UHGV virus genome: UHGV-0090851
Reading direction: 5' to 3' (one strand)
From: a virus
Length of the DNA: 37,840 bases
Below the pieces are notes generated by a model. The model did no database searches, was not told the origin of the DNA, and worked only from the letters and a program-made list of their open reading frames with translations. The position numbers and the translations under genes were made by a program. Positions 2,416 to 32,843 of the stretch are shown in pieces; within the stretch, counting starts at the first letter, position 1, and each line of letters begins with the position of its first letter.

Positions 2416-3310
2416 TGACCCATGCTCCGTTAATGTAAGCCTGAAGAGTTGCGACTTTTACTTTGTTAAGTACCCACGCACCACCACCTGGCGTCGGGGT
2501 GATATAAATACCCACAACCATTTCACTAGTTGTGAAATTCATCCAGGCATCTGCAGTCGTAACAGTTACTTCTCGGGGCGCAGAAAGGCGCAATGCTGAA
2601 ACCGACTCGCCCGCCAGAGCCATTGTCCCTGCTTTATCTGGGATGATAATTGCCTTACCGTTAATCCCTGTAATGGTCGCCTGGTTGTTCGTGGAATAAA
2701 TACCAACACGGATAATATTATTGCTGTCCGTAACCTCTAATCCGTATCTGCATGAAAGTGCGTCAGATAATGATTGTTTCGTGCTGGCGTCCGTAATGAC
2801 GTAGTTTCCTTTCGGTTGCAATTTATCAATACCGAAAGCGGCTTTAACTCCATCAACAGTCGTTTGACCTGTCCCCCCTTGTGTGACAGGTAGAGCGATA
2901 GCGGCTCCGGTGTCGTTATTCCACATTCCCCAACTGGTGTTCGACACCAGGAGAAATTTTTTCAAATCAGGAGAGAAAATCTTCGTGGATACAGGGTCGG
3001 GTTTAATGGTCTGCAATCCAAGGTTTTCGAGAGCTGTTTTCACCGTGCCATCCGATTTGATATCGCCAAACGGATTCTTGCGGCTTAACAGCAGCGCGCG
3101 AAGTGCGGTAAGTAACTGGTCGTGCCGCCCCTTCTCCAGGCTGGCACCGGATGCCTCCACCACGCTGCAAAGTTCCTCCTGCAACATGTCAAAGTAGTCA
3201 TCATCCAGATCGGTGGCAGGCGTGCCGGTCTGGGGGTTACCACGGGTAAAACCGTTCTTACCCGCGCCGAACTTATCCTTCTGCGCGGTTTTCGTGTCTA
3301 TACGATGCAT
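2402..3310 (-). CDS. Tail fibre protein (short, receptor-binding part)
   Basis: 302 aa, Gly/Thr/Asn-rich C-terminus, placed between the baseplate gp48-like gene and Tfa; ATG verified at 3308-3310. Confidence 0.7.
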
Positions 3311-3313
3311 GGA

Positions 3314-3898
3314 TTACTCCGGATATTTAAAAATTACGTAGGTATGCGACGGGCAGAGTTTGTTAAGCACGCACTCGACAACGGTGTCCCCCCAGATACG
3401 CAGTGCGGAATCACAGGGATCGCCACATGTCATCCAGGTGGTGTTGGTGGCGGCTGGCATGTTGACCTGCCAGTAATACCGCCATTCCGGCGCATTCACC
3501 GCGTCAGTACAGGCCGATGAGCAGGTGAACGTGCTTTTGTCGTATCGCGTGATGGTAGCGTCTGGTCTGCCCAGGGCAGCAAGCTGTGCAAGGTAAAAAT
3601 CCTCATTGATGCCGCCCGCCAGGTTAACCTTCGCATCCAGTCGTTGCTGACGCTGGCGAAGGGTCTGTGTCCCTGCGGGAATACATTCATCCGGCAGGCC
3701 GCACAGACGCTCCCAGCGATTTATCAGTTCGGTGGTGGTGCGCGGATCCAGCTCCCGCATCAGGGCATCCGCACGCTGATGAACACGAGTTAATGACGGT
3801 GCCGCACCGGCAATCGCCGGATCGCTGGCTGACCACGCCGGACCGGGCGGCAGCAGTGCCGACAACAGACGGATGTAATCATCGTTTGTCACGTCCAT
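3314..3898 (-). CDS. Baseplate/tail protein, Mu gp48-like (DUF2313, YmfQ-like)
   Basis: 194 aa; position immediately after baseplate J; sequence reminiscent of the YmfQ/gp48 family. Confidence 0.65.
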
Positions 3899-22742: not shown

Positions 22743-23795
22743 TTATTTCCCCACCAGTTCACTTACCTCTTTCACCGTCTGATTAAACCGCTCTGACTCA
22801 AGTTCAACACCTAACGCCCGACGCCCCAGCGCCATTGCTGCTTTTATTGTGGAACCGGATCCCATAAAGAAATCAGCAACCAGATCACCAGGTCGACTAC
22901 TGGCATTGATTATTTGCCGGAGCATATCCGTCGGTTTCTCGCACGGATGTTTACCCGGGTAGAACTGAACGGGCTTATGCGTCCAGACATCGGTATAAGG
23001 CACGGAGACTGATACGGAGAAATAGCGCCGGAGAGATTTAAACTCATCCAGCAATTCAGAATATTTGCGATTCAGTGAATCATAAGATGCCACCAGCTGG
23101 TGGTGTGGTTGTTCCAGTTGTTGTTCCTGAAACTTCTCTGCCGCTATACGGGAAAACAGTGCCTGTAACTTCCGATAGTCAGCCTCATTCGGCAACTGCC
23201 ACTGACTGGCACCAAACCAGTGGGAAACCATATTTTTCTTACCTGTGGCTTCGGCAATTTGTTTTGCCGTTATACCCAGTTCGGCACGAGCATCCCTGAA
23301 ATACGATATCAGCGGTGCCATTATGTGCTGTTTGAGTTCCCTTTCTTTTGCCGCATAGCCGTCACTTTTGCCGCGATATGGCCCCCGGTAATGTTCAGCA
23401 AACAGAACGCGCTCTGTGGCAGGAAAATATGCGCGCAGACTTTCTTTATTACACCCATTCCAACGTCCGGACGGCTTCGCCCAGATGATATGGTTAAGCA
23501 CGTTGAAACGTTCACGCATCATGATCTCAATATCAGATGCCAGGCGATGCCCACAGAACAGGTAAAGGCTTCCGGCAGGTTTCAACACCCGCCAGAACTG
23601 GGCCAGACAGTGGTCCAGCCACTTAAGGTAATCTTCGTCCCCTTTCCACTGATTGTCCCAACCGTTAGGTTTCACCTTGAAGTAAGGCGGATCGGTAACA
23701 ATCAGGTCAATGGAATCATCAGGCAGGGACTGAATAAAATGCAGGCAATCAGCGTTGATTAAATCAACACTGTTTATTTTTACAGTATTTTTCAT
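22743..23795 (-). CDS. DNA methyltransferase, beta-class (DPPY then FxGxG), probably N6-adenine
   Basis: 350 aa; DPPY motif near the N-terminus (LIVTDPPYF) and AdoMet-binding motif near the C-terminus (DFFMGSGST); ATG verified; no adjacent restriction endonuclease. Confidence 0.85.
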   Translation of the reverse strand: MKNTVKINSVDLINADCLHFIQSLPDDSIDLIVTDPPYFKVKPNGWDNQWKGDEDYLKWLDHCLAQFWRVLKPAGSLYLFCGHRLASDIEIMMRERFNVLNHIIWAKPSGRWNGCNKESLRAYFPATERVLFAEHYRGPYRGKSDGYAAKERELKQHIMAPLISYFRDARAELGITAKQIAEATGKKNMVSHWFGASQWQLPNEADYRKLQALFSRIAAEKFQEQQLEQPHHQLVASYDSLNRKYSELLDEFKSLRRYFSVSVSVPYTDVWTHKPVQFYPGKHPCEKPTDMLRQIINASSRPGDLVADFFMGSGSTIKAAMALGRRALGVELESERFNQTVKEVSELVGK

Positions 23796-23945
23796 GGATC
23801 AGTAAGCGTAACTCTGGTAGGCTCACTCTGCTTTTGCGCTAAAGCAGTGGGCCGTGGTTCGCTTGTGACCAGTAAGCATGAGCGAATGGCTGGCAGGTGC
23901 TACCAACACCCACCAGCCGCCCATTTTCACAGCAGGAAACCGCCA

Positions 23946-24173
23946 TTACTGGCAGCGTCTGAATTTATTCCCGTACCCGCCGTTATCCTTCGCCAGACCC
24001 GCCAGAACTAACTGAGTCAGTATTAACTGGCACCGGGCTTCGCTTACTCCGGTAGTTCTCGTCATCATGCGTGGCGTTACCCACTTGTCAGCAGGTAAGA
24101 AATGAAGGACTGCGGCGGCGGTTTCTGTCATATCTTGCTGTTTTAGCATGTCTTTTTCCCTTCTGGTTAACAT
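23946..24173 (-). CDS. Hypothetical small protein, first ORF after tR'
   Basis: 75 aa (or 67 aa from the internal ATG at 24149); possible HTH-like segment; function unknown. Confidence 0.35.
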   Translation of the reverse strand: MLTRREKDMLKQQDMTETAAAVLHFLPADKWVTPRMMTRTTGVSEARCQLILTQLVLAGLAKDNGGYGNKFRRCQ

Positions 24174-24269
24174 GACATACCAATAACTCTTGTCTAAAAA
24201 TCCAGCAAGATAAAAAGTCAGTATTCACGACCACCAGCGTGTTTACTGTACTGCACCAAGTTTACAGGT

Positions 24270-24293
24270 ACAAAAAACCCGCTCAGTGGCGGG
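24270..24293 (-). terminator. Intrinsic terminator tR' (target of Q antitermination)
   Basis: Minus-strand CCCGCCACTGAGCGGG followed by TTTTTT, about 65 nt downstream of the predicted pR' start. Confidence 0.65.
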
Positions 24294-24341
24294 TTCTTAA
24301 ATCTTATCAACGGTAGACATACAAAGCCCATCGTTGGGAAA

Positions 24342-24370
24342 ATCTTATCCATATTTTTTGAAAAATGCAA
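24342..24370 (-). promoter_or_regulatory. Putative late promoter pR' (with qut region)
   Basis: Minus-strand TTGCAT, 17-nt spacer, TAAGAT, immediately downstream of the Q gene and upstream of tR'. Confidence 0.45.
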
Positions 24371-24401
24371 GCATCATGTCGCCATCTTCGGCGAAAATCA
24401 T

Positions 24402-25154
24402 TTATCTTGTCACTTTTCTCAATTGTGTCTCTGCATATGCTTCTTCCTGCCAGCACTTTGTAACCAGTTTATCAATGACATCTGCATATCCTTTGTACCA
24501 CTGATAATCCGTCAGATCCGGTACCAGCTTCTGGACATGATGCCGCGCCAGTGTGGTTGGTAAACGGCTAAACCGGTTTCCATTGCAACGCCCACAAACC
24601 TTATAAACAGGCGCACCATGAAGCCGGGTTCTTTTTTCATCCAGGACAATACCTTTACCCTTACACCCTCTGCACGCTGTGCTGACTTCTCCCTTACCAT
24701 GACAATGCTGACATAGTTCCTTCACCCACTCTTCCTTGATAACAGATTCCCCGCTTCTGGAGTGTTTCACCACTTCGCGCAATACATTATGAAATCCAGT
24801 ACCAGCACAATGCTCACAGCGAGCCTTACTTGCCGCAGACCTGGAATAATCAGCAAAGGCAAAATTCACAAGGTAAGGAATAATCTGTAGCCGGGTTTCT
24901 TCACTCAATTTATTCAATGTCGGGTTATCCAGTGCCATCGCGTAATTGAGCAGACCTTCAATCGCAAACTGAGGATCCTGAACACCAACTTTTGCCAGGA
25001 ATAAGGCAAACCCAAGCGGTGCTTTCGACTGCACCATCCCCTGCGCAGCCATCACATCCGTAATTGTTAAACCACCAGAGCCTGTCGCCGGTGCGTCATC
25101 GCTCAATTTTGGAGATTTTGGGGAGTAATATTTCGGTAAGGCTTCAAGGTTCAT
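24402..25154 (-). CDS. Late-gene antiterminator Q-like protein
   Basis: Several CxxC zinc-ribbon motifs; position immediately upstream of pR'/tR' and the lysis cassette. Start preferred at ATG 25152-25154 (SD GGAGA) over the table's GTG at 25181. Confidence 0.7.
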   Translation of the reverse strand: MNLEALPKYYSPKSPKLSDDAPATGSGGLTITDVMAAQGMVQSKAPLGFALFLAKVGVQDPQFAIEGLLNYAMALDNPTLNKLSEETRLQIIPYLVNFAFADYSRSAASKARCEHCAGTGFHNVLREVVKHSRSGESVIKEEWVKELCQHCHGKGEVSTACRGCKGKGIVLDEKRTRLHGAPVYKVCGRCNGNRFSRLPTTLARHHVQKLVPDLTDYQWYKGYADVIDKLVTKCWQEEAYAETQLRKVTR

Positions 25155-25167
25155 GCTCGTTCTCCAC

Positions 25168-26163
25168 TTACGCCAGTACACCTATTGCCAGCGCACGATC
25201 GATAAAACGAAATATCAGCTCCAGCTGGGAGCCATACTTCTCTTCAAATGCCACGGTATCCGCATGCAGCTCGTCGTGATGCTTTCTGCACAAAGGCAAC
25301 ACAAAAAGGTCATGCGCTTTTGTTCCCATTCCACCCTGACCGTGACCTATCAGGTGGTGGGGATCATCAGCGGGCTTTCCACAACATGCACACGGCTGTG
25401 TCTTAACCCAGCGCGTGTACTTTTCATTAACCCAGCGGCGACGTTTTGGGCGTAACATAAAAGACTCCGGCGACTCCGGATCCACTTTCAGCGCCAGCAC
25501 CTTTTTCGCCTTATCCTGGATGATGCTGGTGGCAGGAACCGAAGGCACAAGGTCACTTTCCCGGGTGACAGACGGCACAACAGGCTTCGGTAATCTCAGT
25601 GCCTTACGGGCTGCACTTTCCGGTAAGGCGTCCGCCAGGTCATTACGAATCAGCCACCAGCACAGTTCCGGCATTGTCACAACGTGACTGTCATCAAAAC
25701 CGAGATCCCGACGCACAACAGACAACACCCAGCGGGCACAGTTATCCGTTGCCATTGATTCCAGCCGTTCCGTGAACTGATCGCGCAGCTGGTTATCGCA
25801 GTGCCAGCACAGACGGATTGCGCCCGGAGCGTGTCGCATTGTTGTCATGTTCTCGCTGTGCCAGTCGGAATGAAGCCACTGGCAGCCTTTTTCACGAAGT
25901 AACCAGCTTTCAAGACATTCCACGCCACCAGCACGACGGATCACTGCCTCATTGCGGAACACGGCCCGAACGGCAGGATCATCCGCCAGCGGTTGTGATG
26001 CCGCGGGAACGGCACCACTGGCGAAAGATGAATAACGTTCCGGCTCAGGCTCCAGCAGGACACGCCCCTGCATAAACAAGGGCATCAGCTCTGAACCTGG
26101 CCTGAACAATACGATCCCCATACGCGGGGCAATTTCAGGGGTCAGTAGTGCTCTCACGGTCAC
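25168..26163 (-). CDS. Conserved lambdoid nin-region protein (DUF968-like, C-terminal Cys/His cluster)
   Basis: 331 aa; CACCGK...HH...H cluster; GTG start; family name from memory only. Confidence 0.5.
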   Translation of the reverse strand: MTVRALLTPEIAPRMGIVLFRPGSELMPLFMQGRVLLEPEPERYSSFASGAVPAASQPLADDPAVRAVFRNEAVIRRAGGVECLESWLLREKGCQWLHSDWHSENMTTMRHAPGAIRLCWHCDNQLRDQFTERLESMATDNCARWVLSVVRRDLGFDDSHVVTMPELCWWLIRNDLADALPESAARKALRLPKPVVPSVTRESDLVPSVPATSIIQDKAKKVLALKVDPESPESFMLRPKRRRWVNEKYTRWVKTQPCACCGKPADDPHHLIGHGQGGMGTKAHDLFVLPLCRKHHDELHADTVAFEEKYGSQLELIFRFIDRALAIGVLA

Positions 26164-28846: not shown

Positions 28847-29839
28847 TCACCCCCTGAATCCTGCCGGGATCTGGCTGTAGTCCACGTTGTCGTAACTGGC
28901 TTTGAAGTACGGGTCTTCACGTTTTTCTGTGTGCGTGCTGACGGACGGCGATAAGCGCAGGGAAAGCTCATCCCATTTTTCCCGCAACTTCGACGGGCTG
29001 AGCACGTTACGGCACCAGAACGGATCGCGGCTGACGCGGCTGTACATCTCGCAGATTTGTTTGTGAGTACGACCATCCTGCACACACATCAGGCGAATTT
29101 CGTTTGCCCAGGCTGTCCAGTTCGGTTCTTTGGGACGAACCACCTCGCCGTCACATTCGGCGGCCTGCTCGTACAGGGCGATGATTTTTTTCCAGAGCCA
29201 CTGTGCGCAGGTCAAATCATCCTGCGTTCCCCACTGGCGCTTTTTAGGGCTGAATACAACCGCATCAGGATGGCGAGTTAAAAACTCCTGTTCAGCCGTT
29301 TGCGTGTCCGGTTGCGAAGCGTCCGGACGAGAAGAGGTTTTATTCTCTGTAGTAATCTCTGTTGTATTCTCTGTAAGATCATTGGGCCATTTTGACCCGA
29401 TGACAGCGTGTCGTTTTGAACCAATGGATCGTGTCATTTTGCGCCCATCCATCAGGTCACTTTGACCCGATGGAGAAGTGCATTTTGACCTGATCGATTC
29501 GTTCACTTTGACCTCTTCTAAAAGCTCACTTTCATAGTTGATCGTGTAGAAGTTGGTCATGTCACGCTTCGATTTATTGAGTTGCTCGCGACGCAAAACC
29601 CCAAGTGATTTCAGGCTTGCAAATGTGCGTTTCAGAGTGGACTCTGACCAGAACGGAAACTGCTCCAGCCACTGTTCTGTCGTGTTATAAACCCAGCGAA
29701 TTCCGCCATGCTCAGTGCCTGAATTCGTTTCATTCAGCCAGTAATGAAGCTGCTGCAACACAATTGCCTCATTCAGACCAATACGGCATGCAAGATCACG
29801 ATTTATCACAATGGGCTGGGATGTCATTAACAGGCTCAT
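28847..29839 (-). CDS. Replication initiation protein (lambda O-like replisome organiser) carrying the origin
   Basis: 330 aa; iteron array and AT-rich tract lie inside the coding sequence as in lambda O; ATG verified at 29837-29839. Confidence 0.7.
   Translation of the reverse strand: MSLLMTSQPIVINRDLACRIGLNEAIVLQQLHYWLNETNSGTEHGGIRWVYNTTEQWLEQFPFWSESTLKRTFASLKSLGVLRREQLNKSKRDMTNFYTINYESELLEEVKVNESIRSKCTSPSGQSDLMDGRKMTRSIGSKRHAVIGSKWPNDLTENTTEITTENKTSSRPDASQPDTQTAEQEFLTRHPDAVVFSPKKRQWGTQDDLTCAQWLWKKIIALYEQAAECDGEVVRPKEPNWTAWANEIRLMCVQDGRTHKQICEMYSRVSRDPFWCRNVLSPSKLREKWDELSLRLSPSVSTHTEKREDPYFKASYDNVDYSQIPAGFRG
29388..29516. repeat. Origin of replication: six 23-bp-spaced iterons
   Basis: CATTTTGACCCGATGA, CGTTTTGAACCAATGG, CATTTTGCGCCCATCC, CACTTTGACCCGATGG, CATTTTGACCTGATCG, CACTTTGACCTCTTCT, with an AT-rich tract containing short TTCTCTGT repeats at 29337-29385. 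Confidence 0.65.
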
Positions 29840-30988: not shown

Positions 30989-31085
30989 ATAACCTCCACA
31001 TATTGCGTGATGAGCATATTATTTCACGCAAATATTTTGCGCAAGTTGATTTGCTTAACGCGCAATAAAGAAATGTAATAAACGC
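30989..31085. promoter_or_regulatory. Immunity switch region: divergent pR / pRM candidates and operators
   Basis: Palindrome TTGCGTGA-N13-TCACGCAA (31003-31031), TTGCGCAA (31037-31044), TTGC-N7-GCAA (31051-31065). Minus-strand promoter TTGCGC-17-TAATAT for cro; plus-strand TTGCTT-17-TGTAAT ending about 6 nt before the cI ATG. Confidence 0.5.
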
Positions 31086-31778
31086 ATGAACATAGGAAAT
31101 CGAGTCAGACAACTTCGCCAGGCGAAGAACATGAAAATCGCCGATCTCGCTGAAGCAATAGGAGTGGATGCGGCGAATATCTCGCGCCTCGAAACAGGTA
31201 AGCAGAAACAATTCACTGAACAAGCCCTGAGTAATATTGCCAGGAGCTTAGGTGTTGATATTGCTGATCTCTTTACCTCAGACCTCAAAAGTAATACTGT
31301 ATGTAAAAACAGTATTAGTGAGGATGTTGCGCAGGTGAAGGATGTATTCCGTATTGAAATGCTGGATGTCAGTGCCAGTGCGGGAAATGGCCTTATCCAG
31401 GGCGGTGATGTCATTGATGTGATTCATGCCATTGAATACAGAACTGATAATGCTGTATCGATGTTTGGTGGACGACCAGCAAATCACATTAAAGTTATCA
31501 ACGTTCGTGGGGACAGTATGTGTCCAACCATTGAGCCAGGAGATCTCATCTTCGTTGATATCAGTATCAATCAGTTTGATGGGGATGGTATATATGTATT
31601 TGGTTTTGATGATAAAATTTACGTCAAACGACTGCAAATGATACCTGATAAACTGCTGGTAATTTCTGATAATCAGATTTACCGCGAATGGGGAATTACC
31701 AGCGAAAACGAACACCGGTTTATGGTCTTTGGAAAGGTCTTAATCAGTCAGTCACAAACCCTTAAGCGACACAATTAA
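31086..31778 (+). CDS. CI-type phage repressor (HTH plus S24 LexA-like peptidase domain)
   Basis: 230 aa; N-terminal HTH (VRQLRQAKNMKIADLAEAIGVDAANISRLETG) and C-terminal autocleavage domain (VRGDSMCPTIEPGDLIFVD...VKRL). Confidence 0.9.
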   Translation: MNIGNRVRQLRQAKNMKIADLAEAIGVDAANISRLETGKQKQFTEQALSNIARSLGVDIADLFTSDLKSNTVCKNSISEDVAQVKDVFRIEMLDVSASAGNGLIQGGDVIDVIHAIEYRTDNAVSMFGGRPANHIKVINVRGDSMCPTIEPGDLIFVDISINQFDGDGIYVFGFDDKIYVKRLQMIPDKLLVISDNQIYREWGITSENEHRFMVFGKVLISQSQTLKRHN

Positions 31779-31800
31779 CCCCCTACCTCAACATCAATTA

Positions 31801-31824
31801 GCCACCAGAAGGTGGCTTTTCATT
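31801..31824 (+). terminator. Intrinsic terminator downstream of the repressor gene
   Basis: GCCACC-AGAA-GGTGGC followed by TTTTCATT. Confidence 0.6.
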
Positions 31825-31834
31825 ACTCACGCTA

Positions 31835-31872
31835 TTGCATATCTCGCAATAAAATACTTGCACGTTACGCAA
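31835..31872. promoter_or_regulatory. oL-like operator pair
   Basis: TTGCATATCTCGCAA (31835-31849) and TTGCACGTTACGCAA (31858-31872), same TTGC-N7-GCAA architecture as the site at 31051-31065. Confidence 0.45.
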
Positions 31873-32343
31873 TTTCATTTTATCTTTCTTTCCAGACCAA
31901 CAAACAAGGTCCTGACAAAATTTGGTTGTAACACGGCGTATGGCACATGCGTCGTTAGCGGTCTGGGGACGTTAAAGGGGACAATCCACTCCTTGCTCGG
32001 GCAAACAAACCAGGTAGCCGGAATGTGCAAGTCAATGATGATGCTGATAAGACGCCTAACCAGCGCGGCGATCCGGTTTGACGCCTGGGAAGAGACCAGG
32101 GTGCAACGATGAGGGCATTTATGGAACCGCGACAAAGTGTGGTGCCGTAACTGGCTAAGTGCTCTCAGCGTTGTGGTAATCCGCGAAATGGCGCGGCGGT
32201 AAGTATGGCGGGGTTACTCTTTCCCCGTTGAGGACACCGGATTGTCAGGTTGACCATACGCCTGAGTGACAACCCCACCACAACAGCCACTGCTTTGGCG
32301 GTGCCAGTTTGTACACTTGCTTCCGGCTGGTACCGCTCTTTTT

Positions 32344-32432
32344 ACAAAACAGAGAAGAGCATCACCGGACGACGGGCTCATAACCCAATCCATCCGGGCG
32401 GCTGCCACCGCAGGTGTTCTTCTCTGTTTTGT
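32344..32432 (+). repeat. Perfect 15-bp inverted repeat with 59-nt spacer in the early-left leader
   Basis: ACAAAACAGAGAAGA (32344-32358) and TCTTCTCTGTTTTGT (32418-32432); sits about 50 nt upstream of the first early-left gene. Confidence 0.4.
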
Positions 32433-32480
32433 GGAGAAACCAACCGACCTTGCAGGGTCGATATGATGAGGAACAGCAAA

Positions 32481-32843
32481 ATGGCTAGCGAACGCAGTAC
32501 TGATGTGCAGGCATTTATCGGGGAGCTGGACGGCGGCGTATTTGAAACCAAAATCGGCGCAGTTCTCAGTGAAGTCGCTTCCGGTGTGATGAACACGAAA
32601 ACCAAAGGGAAGGTCTCACTCAACCTGGAAATCGAACCATTTGATGAGAACCGTGTGAAAATCAAACACAAACTCTCATATATTCGCCCGACTAACCGCG
32701 GGAAAATTTCCGAAGAAGACACCACCGAAACGCCGATGTATGTCAATCGCGGTGGTCGCCTGACTATTCTGCAGGAAGACCAGGGACAATTACTGACTCT
32801 TGCCGGTGAACCTGACGGAAAACTCCGCGCAGCAGGTCATTAA
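32481..32843 (+). CDS. Hypothetical early-left protein
   Basis: About 121 aa from ATG 32481; the longer table ORF from 32250 starts at TTG and its N-terminal region does not look protein-like. Confidence 0.45.
   Translation: MASERSTDVQAFIGELDGGVFETKIGAVLSEVASGVMNTKTKGKVSLNLEIEPFDENRVKIKHKLSYIRPTNRGKISEEDTTETPMYVNRGGRLTILQEDQGQLLTLAGEPDGKLRAAGH

Follow-up and report, generated by a model that had tools for sequence, protein, structure and literature searches.

In phage lambda, the leader of the early-left operon contains nutL and an RNase III site upstream of N, and in phage T4 the tRNA cluster also yields two stable RNAs, species 1 and species 2, which are structured non-tRNA RNAs co-transcribed with the tRNA genes. 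The subject here is a leader of comparable position in UHGV virus genome UHGV-0090851, a lambdoid prophage type with an SfV/mEp460/cdtI-like early-left operon. The whole stretch analysed, 37,840 nucleotides long, is called the window, and the element in question is the interval between the terminator of its cI-like repressor gene and yfdP, the first early-left gene. As with the lambda N leader, this is an early-left leader with a long hairpin of the RNase III type just before the first gene. Unlike lambda N or rrn-type antitermination, it has no N gene, and an ungapped search of the window's early regions found no match to boxA (UGCUCUUUAACAA/CGCUCUUA) within three mismatches.

The closest described counterpart is the dicBF locus of the Qin prophage of E. 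coli K-12. There, the promoter dicBp is PL-like, with DicA acting like CI, and the 5′ ends of DicF RNAs are generated by RNase III for a 190-nt species and by RNase E for a 53-nt species (bioRxiv 10.1101/2023.04.14.536235). The 3′ ends arise by Rho-independent termination (53 nt) or by RNase III cleavage of the full-length mRNA (72 nt) (PMC5069750). A second system is put of phage HK022, an RNA of about 70 nt with two stem-loops, which occurs after both PL and PR and binds the zinc-binding domain of β′ (PMC9378689).

The interval in the window is best read as oL/pL followed by an untranslated early-left leader of about 590 nt, made up of conserved, independently folding and horizontally shuffled RNA modules that are laid out like the Qin ydfC-dicB region and would be processed as proposed below; this joint reading is held with moderate confidence. 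In order, the parts are module A, hairpin P6, modules B and E, and hairpins F and G. On sequence grounds, the arrangement as a whole, with B, E and F, represents a new version of the dicBF-type non-coding cassette. A preliminary description of this DNA had claimed a gap between the repressor terminator and the first early-left gene, and the gap is indeed there, bounded by a hairpin at 31800-31817 and the yfdP ATG at 32481. That description centred on a 15-bp inverted repeat, which is one of at least six conserved elements, and module A, the most striking of them, was missed. It had offered three options for the region, of which a processing site and an sRNA find support in the correspondence with the K-12 Qin dicF locus, while a put-like antiterminator, taken as homology, does not.

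In line with the general idea of the preliminary description, the evidence strongly indicates that the interval is a structured non-coding RNA region and not a gene. Paired changes were found among relatives in module A, P6, E and F, and the leader RNA (31893-32490) is more stable than its controls, with z = −4.5 and none of 100 shuffles as stable. The interval does hold six open reading frames (ORFs) of 39-86 aa on both strands, and minus-strand hypothetical proteins have been annotated across the homologous stretch, including mEp460_036 and mEp460_037 (L001, 4097-4650) and others in GenBank phage records. Substitutions at the three codon positions of these ORFs (38/59/56, 31/56/43, 51/24/35 and 43/24/45) show no third-position excess, unlike those of the repressor gene used as a control (243/145/856), and the frames are broken by frameshifts or stops in diverged homologues. 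The interval ORFs thus display neither the third-position bias nor the preserved frame of protein-coding sequence, and since they lack this signature, annotations of the mEp460_036/mEp460_037 type are probably artefacts. In the RefSeq records listed, yfdP is the sole annotation over the leader and module A has no feature, and the changes actually seen are base-pair compensating. That a small ORF of the interval encodes a protein is therefore scarcely credible, and the earlier view that no credible ORF lies here stands.

Searches with Rfam 15 gave no family match for the leader, whether the whole window, the region at E ≤ 10, 13 relatives or module E alone was submitted, so this suggested check assigned no family; the matches in relatives were limited to tRNA genes. 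ARAGORN found no tRNA or tmRNA in the leader, with only noise at relaxed settings, and a literature search for the leader's invariant sequences, together with broader searches, returned no relevant paper. The AgvB/AsxR anti-sRNAs and the Pas sRNAs were considered and set aside as unrelated RNAs located in the late region. By BLAST, some part of the leader stretch is present in 4738 of 5426 complete E. coli genomes. The stretch is mosaic: separate sub-segments recur in unrelated phages, namely P1, P7 and D6, the epsilon15-like phages phiV10, TL-2011b and SPN1S, and also Klebsiella phages, SfV, SfII and ST64B. The CPS-53 prophage of K-12 has yfdP but not this leader.

A conserved RNA at the start of the leader

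Module A copies were gathered from IMG/VR and from one genome per species, using both a 19-mer core and an independent motif. An alignment of the window with phage P1, a phiV10-like phage, TL-2011b, SPN1S and a Klebsiella phage revealed conserved blocks separated by variable hairpins, with compensatory changes. A five-helix structure, including an H-type pseudoknot (Table 1), was then subjected to a covariation test on 56 sequences no more than 95% alike. In this test, 94.8% of cells were paired, versus 28-52% when the 3′ partners were slid by one to three columns, and 13 pairs had changed on both sides, in 133 cells. None of 500 shuffles reached the covariation score. The exchanges are distributed over the structure: A-U in 28 sequences versus G-C in 27 for helix P1, C-G in 43 versus U-A in 13 for P2, C-G in 51 versus A-U in 5 for the pseudoknot, C-G in 36 versus G-C in 12 for P5, and all of A-U, U-G, C-G and U-A in P4.

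The covariance model built for module A has a single match in both strands of the 37.8-kb window (140 bits, E 2.5e-44), with none after pR. Of 124 copies found by the other motif, 118 have the 19-mer GGUAGCCGGAAUGUGCAAG without change, the rest being five single-base variants and one deletion derivative without the 19-mer. Module A has no match in Rfam 15, either at gathering scores or at E ≤ 10, and antisense pairing of its conserved segments with the rrnH operon (16S, 23S, 5S and its tRNAs) did not exceed shuffled controls. Module A appears to be an undescribed and highly constrained RNA family.

Several likenesses were tried and dropped. An integron attC-like reading of GTTGTGG/CCACAAC fails as the motif does not fit GTTRRRY, and a likeness between the P5 region and a portion of the glmS ribozyme, or between the 19-mer and signal recognition particle (SRP) RNA or CsrA sites, found no support in Rfam. 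Just 5′ of helix P1, at 31915-31933, the window subtype and phage P1 (L002, about 3000-3015) have AUUUGGUUGUAACA in common. The GUUGU within it could pair with GCAAC at 32103-32107 and would then compete with the pairing at the P6 base. The window's mosaic boundary with other immunity types lies at about 31915.

Module A is widespread. Of 5426 complete E. coli genomes, 1833 carry it; its 2466 places include 554 on plasmids, and no annotated feature lies under it among the matches listed. At the species level, matches to the 19-mer fall entirely in Enterobacteriaceae genera and Ca. Erwinia dacicola, aside from one chance match and one contig that is probably mis-binned. The former, in a metagenome-assembled genome (MAG) labelled Oscillospiraceae (L159), lacks the other module A motifs; the latter, 1.7 kb long and from a MAG labelled Bacillota (L171), holds a full enterobacterial-type module A and probably reflects a binning error.

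Without exception, module A is on the sense strand of an early transcription unit. Where inspected, such units begin at promoters that an operator, or a palindrome resembling one, overlaps. The lambdoid copies come after oL/pL, and the same −10 sequence, TATCTT, stands directly 5′ of them in unrelated immunity types (L012, L042, L130 and L132). An Stx2c phage has a different repressor before the same leader, and again no N gene. Phage P1 has its copy in the ban operon, which is under C1 control, with trnI on one side and ban on the other. The epsilon15-like phages have module A at the head of a small opposite-strand unit between the terminase and portal genes, directly before a tRNA-Arg(UCU) gene and behind a promoter overlapped by TTACC-N5-GGTAA. 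In L003, L005 and L170, which comprise epsilon15-like phages and a Buttiauxella prophage, this palindrome overlaps the promoter-like TTGACA...TACCTT of the module A/tRNA-Arg unit; because it looks like an operator, the unit is probably repressor-controlled as well.

Association with tRNA genes is a recurrent feature, 46 of 126 copies of module A having a tRNA gene immediately next to them on the same strand. Either a tRNA-Arg gene starts 165 nt after the 19-mer, or a tRNA-Ile2(CAU) gene ends 95 nt before it. Of 134 distinct copies, 130 have a hairpin and T run after the 19-mer (median distance 326 nt), and the cargo after this terminator-like hairpin varies, including yfdP, ParB-like genes, xis-int and DUF2829-like genes. 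The order of modules is not fixed either, since L023 has a second, degenerate module A about +712 nt from the first, downstream of an inserted reverse-strand gene, and in L155 (4370-4377) module A comes directly after the 3′ end of a B1 module. Because its sequence is conserved independently of the downstream cargo, and because tRNA genes are so often adjacent, the evidence suggests that module A is a stable RNA and binds a conserved host component. By description it can be likened to T4 species 1 and 2, with release by tRNA nucleases presumed; T4 is of course virulent, and its RNAs are shorter.

The dicBF-like cassette and its proposed processing

Downstream of module A, the leader and the Qin locus run in parallel. 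Both belong to a PL-like operon under a CI-like repressor (CI/DicA-like in the dicBF-type locus), and both place the same parts in the same order within a long non-coding stretch: a P6-type hairpin, a B segment, a GGCGG...CCGCC terminator hairpin with a U run, a long stem and then the next gene. In the ydfC-dicB intergenic region of Qin, these are a P6-type hairpin, a B-like segment, DicF, a long-stemmed B-type module and dicB. The two differ in that the window's cassette comes directly after the promoter and that of Qin after three small genes, and in that the downstream stem is F-type in the window and B-type, weakly STnc100-like, in Qin. The Qin module after DicF (L178, 3433-3642) scores 34.4 bits with Rfam STnc100, below the gathering score of 47, which suggests that STnc100 and the PasD-type prophage sRNAs are drawn from this pool of shuffled modules too.

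The first shared part, P6, folds with a minimum free energy of −33.4 kcal/mol (z = −4.2), and its two strands change together across 42 distinct units, for example GAGAGCAUU/AGUGCUCUC, GAAAAGGCG/CGCCGUUUCC and GAUGGCUUUC/GAGAGUCAUC. By analogy with Qin, it is a candidate RNase III site. The start of its 3′ strand, UGCUCU(U)U, was considered as a boxA and is treated as stem, given that it covaries with the partner strand. P6 and F are one hairpin family with the form (A)CACAAC-GAGAGCAU...GUGCUCUC-GUUGUGG, in which GUUGUGG is able to pair upstream or downstream.

Module B is 89.4% identical over 123 nt to the K-12 Qin segment immediately upstream of dicF, so that the upstream segment of the 190-nt precursor is conserved in the window. 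Its closing pair is U-A in the window and C-G in Qin. The module fills a slot that in other phages holds the tRNA-Arg(UCU) gene: among 138 distinct copies of module A, the following slot is occupied by tRNA-Arg in 25, B1 in 25, B2 in 25, B3 in 6 and something else in 24, and 33 have no slot. Neither ARAGORN nor the Rfam tRNA model detects a cloverleaf in the window's module B; the variant in L093 has a tRNA score of 43.9 bits, as a tRNA with an insertion.

Module E is related to DicF in position, form and sequence. As a positive control, Rfam identified DicF in Qin with 76.7 bits, exactly at E's position relative to B, and the sequence TTTGGCGGT-N2-CAGTTT after module B is common to the window's E and DicF. 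Like DicF, E carries a GGCGG...CCGCC hairpin and a U run, for which termination is predicted; the GC-rich stem (32298-32307/32327-32336) is followed by a U tract at 32337-32343 (UCUUUUU), and four stem pairs have changed on both sides among relatives. Seventeen E elements, not including DicF, were used to build a model that matches K-12 DicF at 30.3 bits (E 8.5e-5, by a rough calibration), and in the 57.5 kb searched the model's sole other match was the window's own E, one of the 17 training sequences. The sequence CGCUCUUUUUACAA at E was rejected as a boxA, being boxA-like in this subtype only and variable in others.

Hairpin F contains the inverted repeat of the preliminary description, whose perfect 15 bp with a 59-nt spacer (32344-32358/32418-32432) is confirmed, is far above chance, and forms the inner part of longer arms (32344-32368 and 32408-32432, 25 nt, 84% complementary) that make a 25-bp hairpin. 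From 32339 to 32437 the structure has a predicted energy of −51.2 kcal/mol (z = −7.1, a stability that none of 200 shuffles attained). Across 15 sequences, 97.3% of the stem is paired and five pairs have changed on both sides, for example A-U in 9 versus C-G in 6 and G-C in 9 versus C-G in 6; the stem also pairs with the U tract of terminator E. The last element, hairpin G, has counterparts in relatives with GCCC/GGGC, GGCGG/CCGCC and CGCCCC/GGGGGC arms, as seen by eye, and is flagged by the terminator scan on the minus strand.

A 13-nt sequence in the tip of F (32374-32386, GGGCUCAUAACCC) is an exact copy of the anticodon stem-loop core of E. coli initiator tRNA, whose gene sequence was confirmed at 100% identity in all 5426 genomes. 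It is kept in most relatives, though not in L151, L157 and L173, and could be a tRNA relic or a decoy for a tRNA-targeting factor. Along with the T-arm-like hairpins in P6 tips, the tRNA genes that flank module A and the tRNA score of the module B relative, this identity would fit a leader that is nothing other than a decayed tRNA gene array without present function. Set against such decay are the near-invariance of the 19-mer, the many compensatory changes across phages that otherwise differ by 30-40%, and the presence of module A in a third of complete E. coli genomes. Conservation of this kind is at odds with neutral decay, and the decay explanation has very little probability.

Phage P1 offers a further comparison, as the second BLAST match there is a module of B type that overlaps the record's 'dicF-like region' and lies closely downstream of the ban promoter, which C1 controls. 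The P1 ban leader resembles the window in having a B-type module and a copy of module A in early, repressor-controlled and largely non-coding segments; it differs in the order of modules, in their spread over about 2.3 kb and in the tRNA and tci genes in between. The E model detected no E-type element in the P1 stretch searched.

The processing known for DicF can be projected onto these structures. In Qin, the point 190 nt upstream of the DicF 3′ end maps to the P6-type stem, on its 3′ strand, and the 190-nt RNA would accordingly consist of module B plus DicF; the point 19 nt past the terminator maps to the 5′ arm of the following long stem. Hairpin F is the positional counterpart of the long stem that follows DicF, at which RNase III generates the 72-nt species. 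Folding places long duplexes suited to RNase III at homologous positions in the window and in Qin.

A working scheme for the leader follows, its later steps modelled on homologous loci. When the CI-like repressor leaves the two operators, pL would produce transcripts from near 31893 that fold during synthesis. Many would stop at terminator E (about 32343), so that the immediate-early product would be a non-coding RNA. RNase III is expected to cut the long hairpins P6 (near 32164/32165, in the 3′ strand) and F, and a cut by RNase E may separate B from E. The predicted products are a 5′ RNA of about 220 nt with module A, a B+E species of about 180 nt that would be the counterpart of the 190-nt 'long DicF', and a DicF-like terminator RNA of about 60 nt. 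Only read-through transcripts would reach yfdP and beyond, trimmed at F and carrying hairpin G. Together, E and F would constitute an attenuator and processing point of the early-left operon.

Several points weigh against this scheme and the kinship with DicF. All cleavage sites, and termination at E, are drawn from analogy, and a strong terminator before needed genes (xis and int stand directly after it in relatives) implies some mechanism of read-through. The Rfam DicF model (RF00039) misses the window's E even at E ≤ 10, whether given 901 nt or 91 nt, and E is without the DicF 5′ seed that pairs with ftsZ (UUUCUGGUGACG), having AGCCACUGCUU in its place. The internal fold of module B has a z of only −1.3, and its covariation sample, 11 near-identical sequences, gives no support. 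Finally, Qin has no module A, which makes the dicF analogy uninformative on that element.

The need for read-through bears on another means by which the leader could act, with module A as a cis-acting processive antiterminator RNA, functionally put-like, that lets polymerase from pL pass E and resist Rho across the leader. Like put, module A is a non-coding RNA just downstream of an early promoter in an N-less lambdoid phage, upstream of terminators. It is always on the sense strand, after repressor-controlled promoters and before a terminator and cargo genes. The earlier claim that no N-like gene is evident holds: among the ten ORFs scanned (immunity-region, early-left and Q-like), PHROGs names CI, Cro, CII, O and Q-like products and none that is N-like, and the early region is without boxA as noted above. 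A put-like RNA has also been speculated on for N-less relatives (phage LLS versus phage 2H10; PMC12315714), and 2H10 carries this leader.

Homology to put of HK022 was nevertheless rejected. The module A model scores at most 4.8 bits on the HK022 immunity region, blastn finds similarity there to the repressor gene only, and the architecture differs: module A is about 180-200 nt long, has five or more helices plus an H-type pseudoknot, and is present in a single copy in the window, versus the two copies of put, each with two stem-loops (PMC9378689). In phage P1, module A is some 2.3 kb from the promoter, directly after a tRNA gene. In L029, L042 and L084 a hairpin and an exact boxA, UGCUCUUUAACAA, directly follow module A, which suggests that A alone is insufficient. 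The upkeep of terminator E by compensatory change is hard to explain if polymerase always ignores it; because E is kept in this way it appears to be used, and constitutive put-like antitermination ranks lower on that account. We consider such a function rather unlikely. The added hairpin with its rrn-type boxA (UGCUCUUUAACAAUCUGG) stands about 125 nt after the 19-mer, in P6's place, in L084 (about 3330-3376), L029, L042 and L130, and in L163 a hairpin and boxA of this kind occur 743 nt upstream of its module A.

It is also conceivable that module A is a riboswitch-like sensor of a metabolite or tRNA, choosing between termination at E and read-through by way of the CAAC/GUUGUGG/CCACAAC pairings. 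Its anatomy is aptamer-like, with invariant junction nucleotides, variable peripheral stems and a pseudoknot; some copies sit where the transcript begins (L012, L112) or immediately ahead of an ORF (L065), and the two-way pairing of GUUGUGG would supply a switch. The terminator, however, lies at least about 200 nt downstream with a tRNA gene or module B in between, no alternative pairing was found that involves the arms of E, the P1 copy is mid-operon, and there is no ligand to suggest. A riboswitch is accordingly improbable.

A broader and tentative possibility, which we consider less than even in likelihood, is that module A represents a new class of phage RNA for host takeover or anti-defence, made immediately-early under repressor control in lambdoid, P1-like and probably epsilon15-like phages, where for the last group such control is read solely from the operator-like palindrome. 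It would be released from tRNA-operon-like or dicF-like precursors and act on a conserved host machine, with RNA polymerase, the ribosome, a ribonuclease or a tRNA-targeting defence nuclease as candidates. If this were true, the tRNA-shaped module B and the initiator-tRNA-like loop of F could be decoys of a similar sort.

Control region, neighbouring genes and significance

Apart from the modules, the window contains the control elements expected of an early-left operon, and these are collected with the leader features in Table 1.

Table 1. Features of the early-left leader and its surroundings in the window
Feature	Position	Strand	Basis
Module A, conserved multi-helix RNA	31913..32112	+	covariation, covariance model
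Module A, P1 hairpin	31934-31954	+	covariation
Module A, P2	31962-32014 (base 31962-66/32010-14)	+	base tested by covariation
Module A, near-invariant 19-mer GGUAGCCGGAAUGUGCAAG	32013-32031	+	conservation
Module A, P3, variable	32032-32051	+	
Module A, P4	32052-55/32063-66	+	covariation
Module A, H-type pseudoknot, P4 loop with downstream strand	32058-61 with 32075-78	+	covariation
Module A, P5	32084-32100 (32084-88/32096-100)	+	covariation
Hairpin P6: base CAAC/GUUG, stem GAUGAGGGCAUU/AAGUGCUCUC, variable tip	32103..32174	+	folding, covariation
Module B, type B2, domain closed by GUUGUGGU/ACCACAAC	32170..32284	+	similarity to K-12 Qin
Module E, predicted intrinsic-terminator hairpin with short 5′ single strand	32279..32345	+	covariation, DicF relation
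Hairpin F, inverted repeat of the preliminary description, branched tip	32339..32437	+	folding, covariation
Hairpin G, CGACC-UUGCAG-GGUCG, just 5′ of yfdP ribosome-binding site	32445..32460	+	compensatory variants by eye
CI-like S24 repressor gene	31086-31778	+	PHROGs
Cro-like gene, facing the repressor gene	30988-30728	-	PHROGs
Terminator-like hairpin and T run, ends repressor (cI-like) transcript	31800..31821	+	terminator scan
oL operator-like palindrome TTGCATATCTCGCAA	31835..31849	.	exact TTGC-N7-GCAA
Second operator-like palindrome TTGCACGTTACGCAA, overlapping pL −35	31858..31872	.	exact TTGC-N7-GCAA
Inferred pL promoter	31858..31886	+	read from sequence
Shine-Dalgarno GAGGAA (32468-73) and yfdP, first early-left gene	32468..32843	+	phrog_204

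The repressor gene and its operators are plainly present. Exact TTGC-N7-GCAA occurs four times in 37.8 kb, and three of these sites flank the repressor gene (31051, 31835 and 31858), the last two being the oL-like operators that had been reported; a site with one mismatch is found at 31003. The sole exact site outside the immunity region, at 29582-29596 within the O-like replication gene, could be a matter of chance or an additional repressor site. The promoter pL is placed by its sequence, with a −35 of TTGCAC (31858-63), a 17-nt spacer, a −10 of TATCTT (31881-86) and a probable start near 31893; it is too weak to be detected by the consensus promoter scan.

The hairpin after the repressor gene has a 7-bp stem with five GC pairs, followed by TTTTC. 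Behind the Cro-like gene are CII-like and O-like genes, with a Q-like antiterminator gene farther along the minus strand (PHROGs), and the Cro-like and CII-like genes overlap, leaving no non-coding gap after cro. On the other side, yfdP runs from its ATG at 32481 to a stop at 32843 and matches phrog_204 with E 5e-49; the homologous stretch is annotated as yfdP in RefSeq, and yfdQ, yfdR and a PAPS-reductase-like gene follow on the plus strand. No ORF of at least 90 aa is listed for 23796-24401, between the Q-like gene (24402-25181, minus) and a minus-strand ORF at 22743-23795, and this is the expected location of the late promoter and its leader.

The leader holds a strategic position, as it is the first RNA made from pL after induction of a temperate phage. 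A stretch that annotation leaves blank, or fills with spurious hypothetical proteins, is predicted to be a conserved RNA-producing unit. Module A combines covariation as strong as that of accepted RNA families with a near-invariant 19-nt core and a presence in a third of complete E. coli genomes. The comparison with Qin ties the isolated and long-known DicF locus to a larger family of shuffled phage RNA modules, spread over lambdoid, P1-like and epsilon15-like phages, and predicts new DicF-like small RNAs with other seeds. It also frames, in a form open to testing, the question of how N-less lambdoid phages pass a conserved terminator that stands before their early-left genes.

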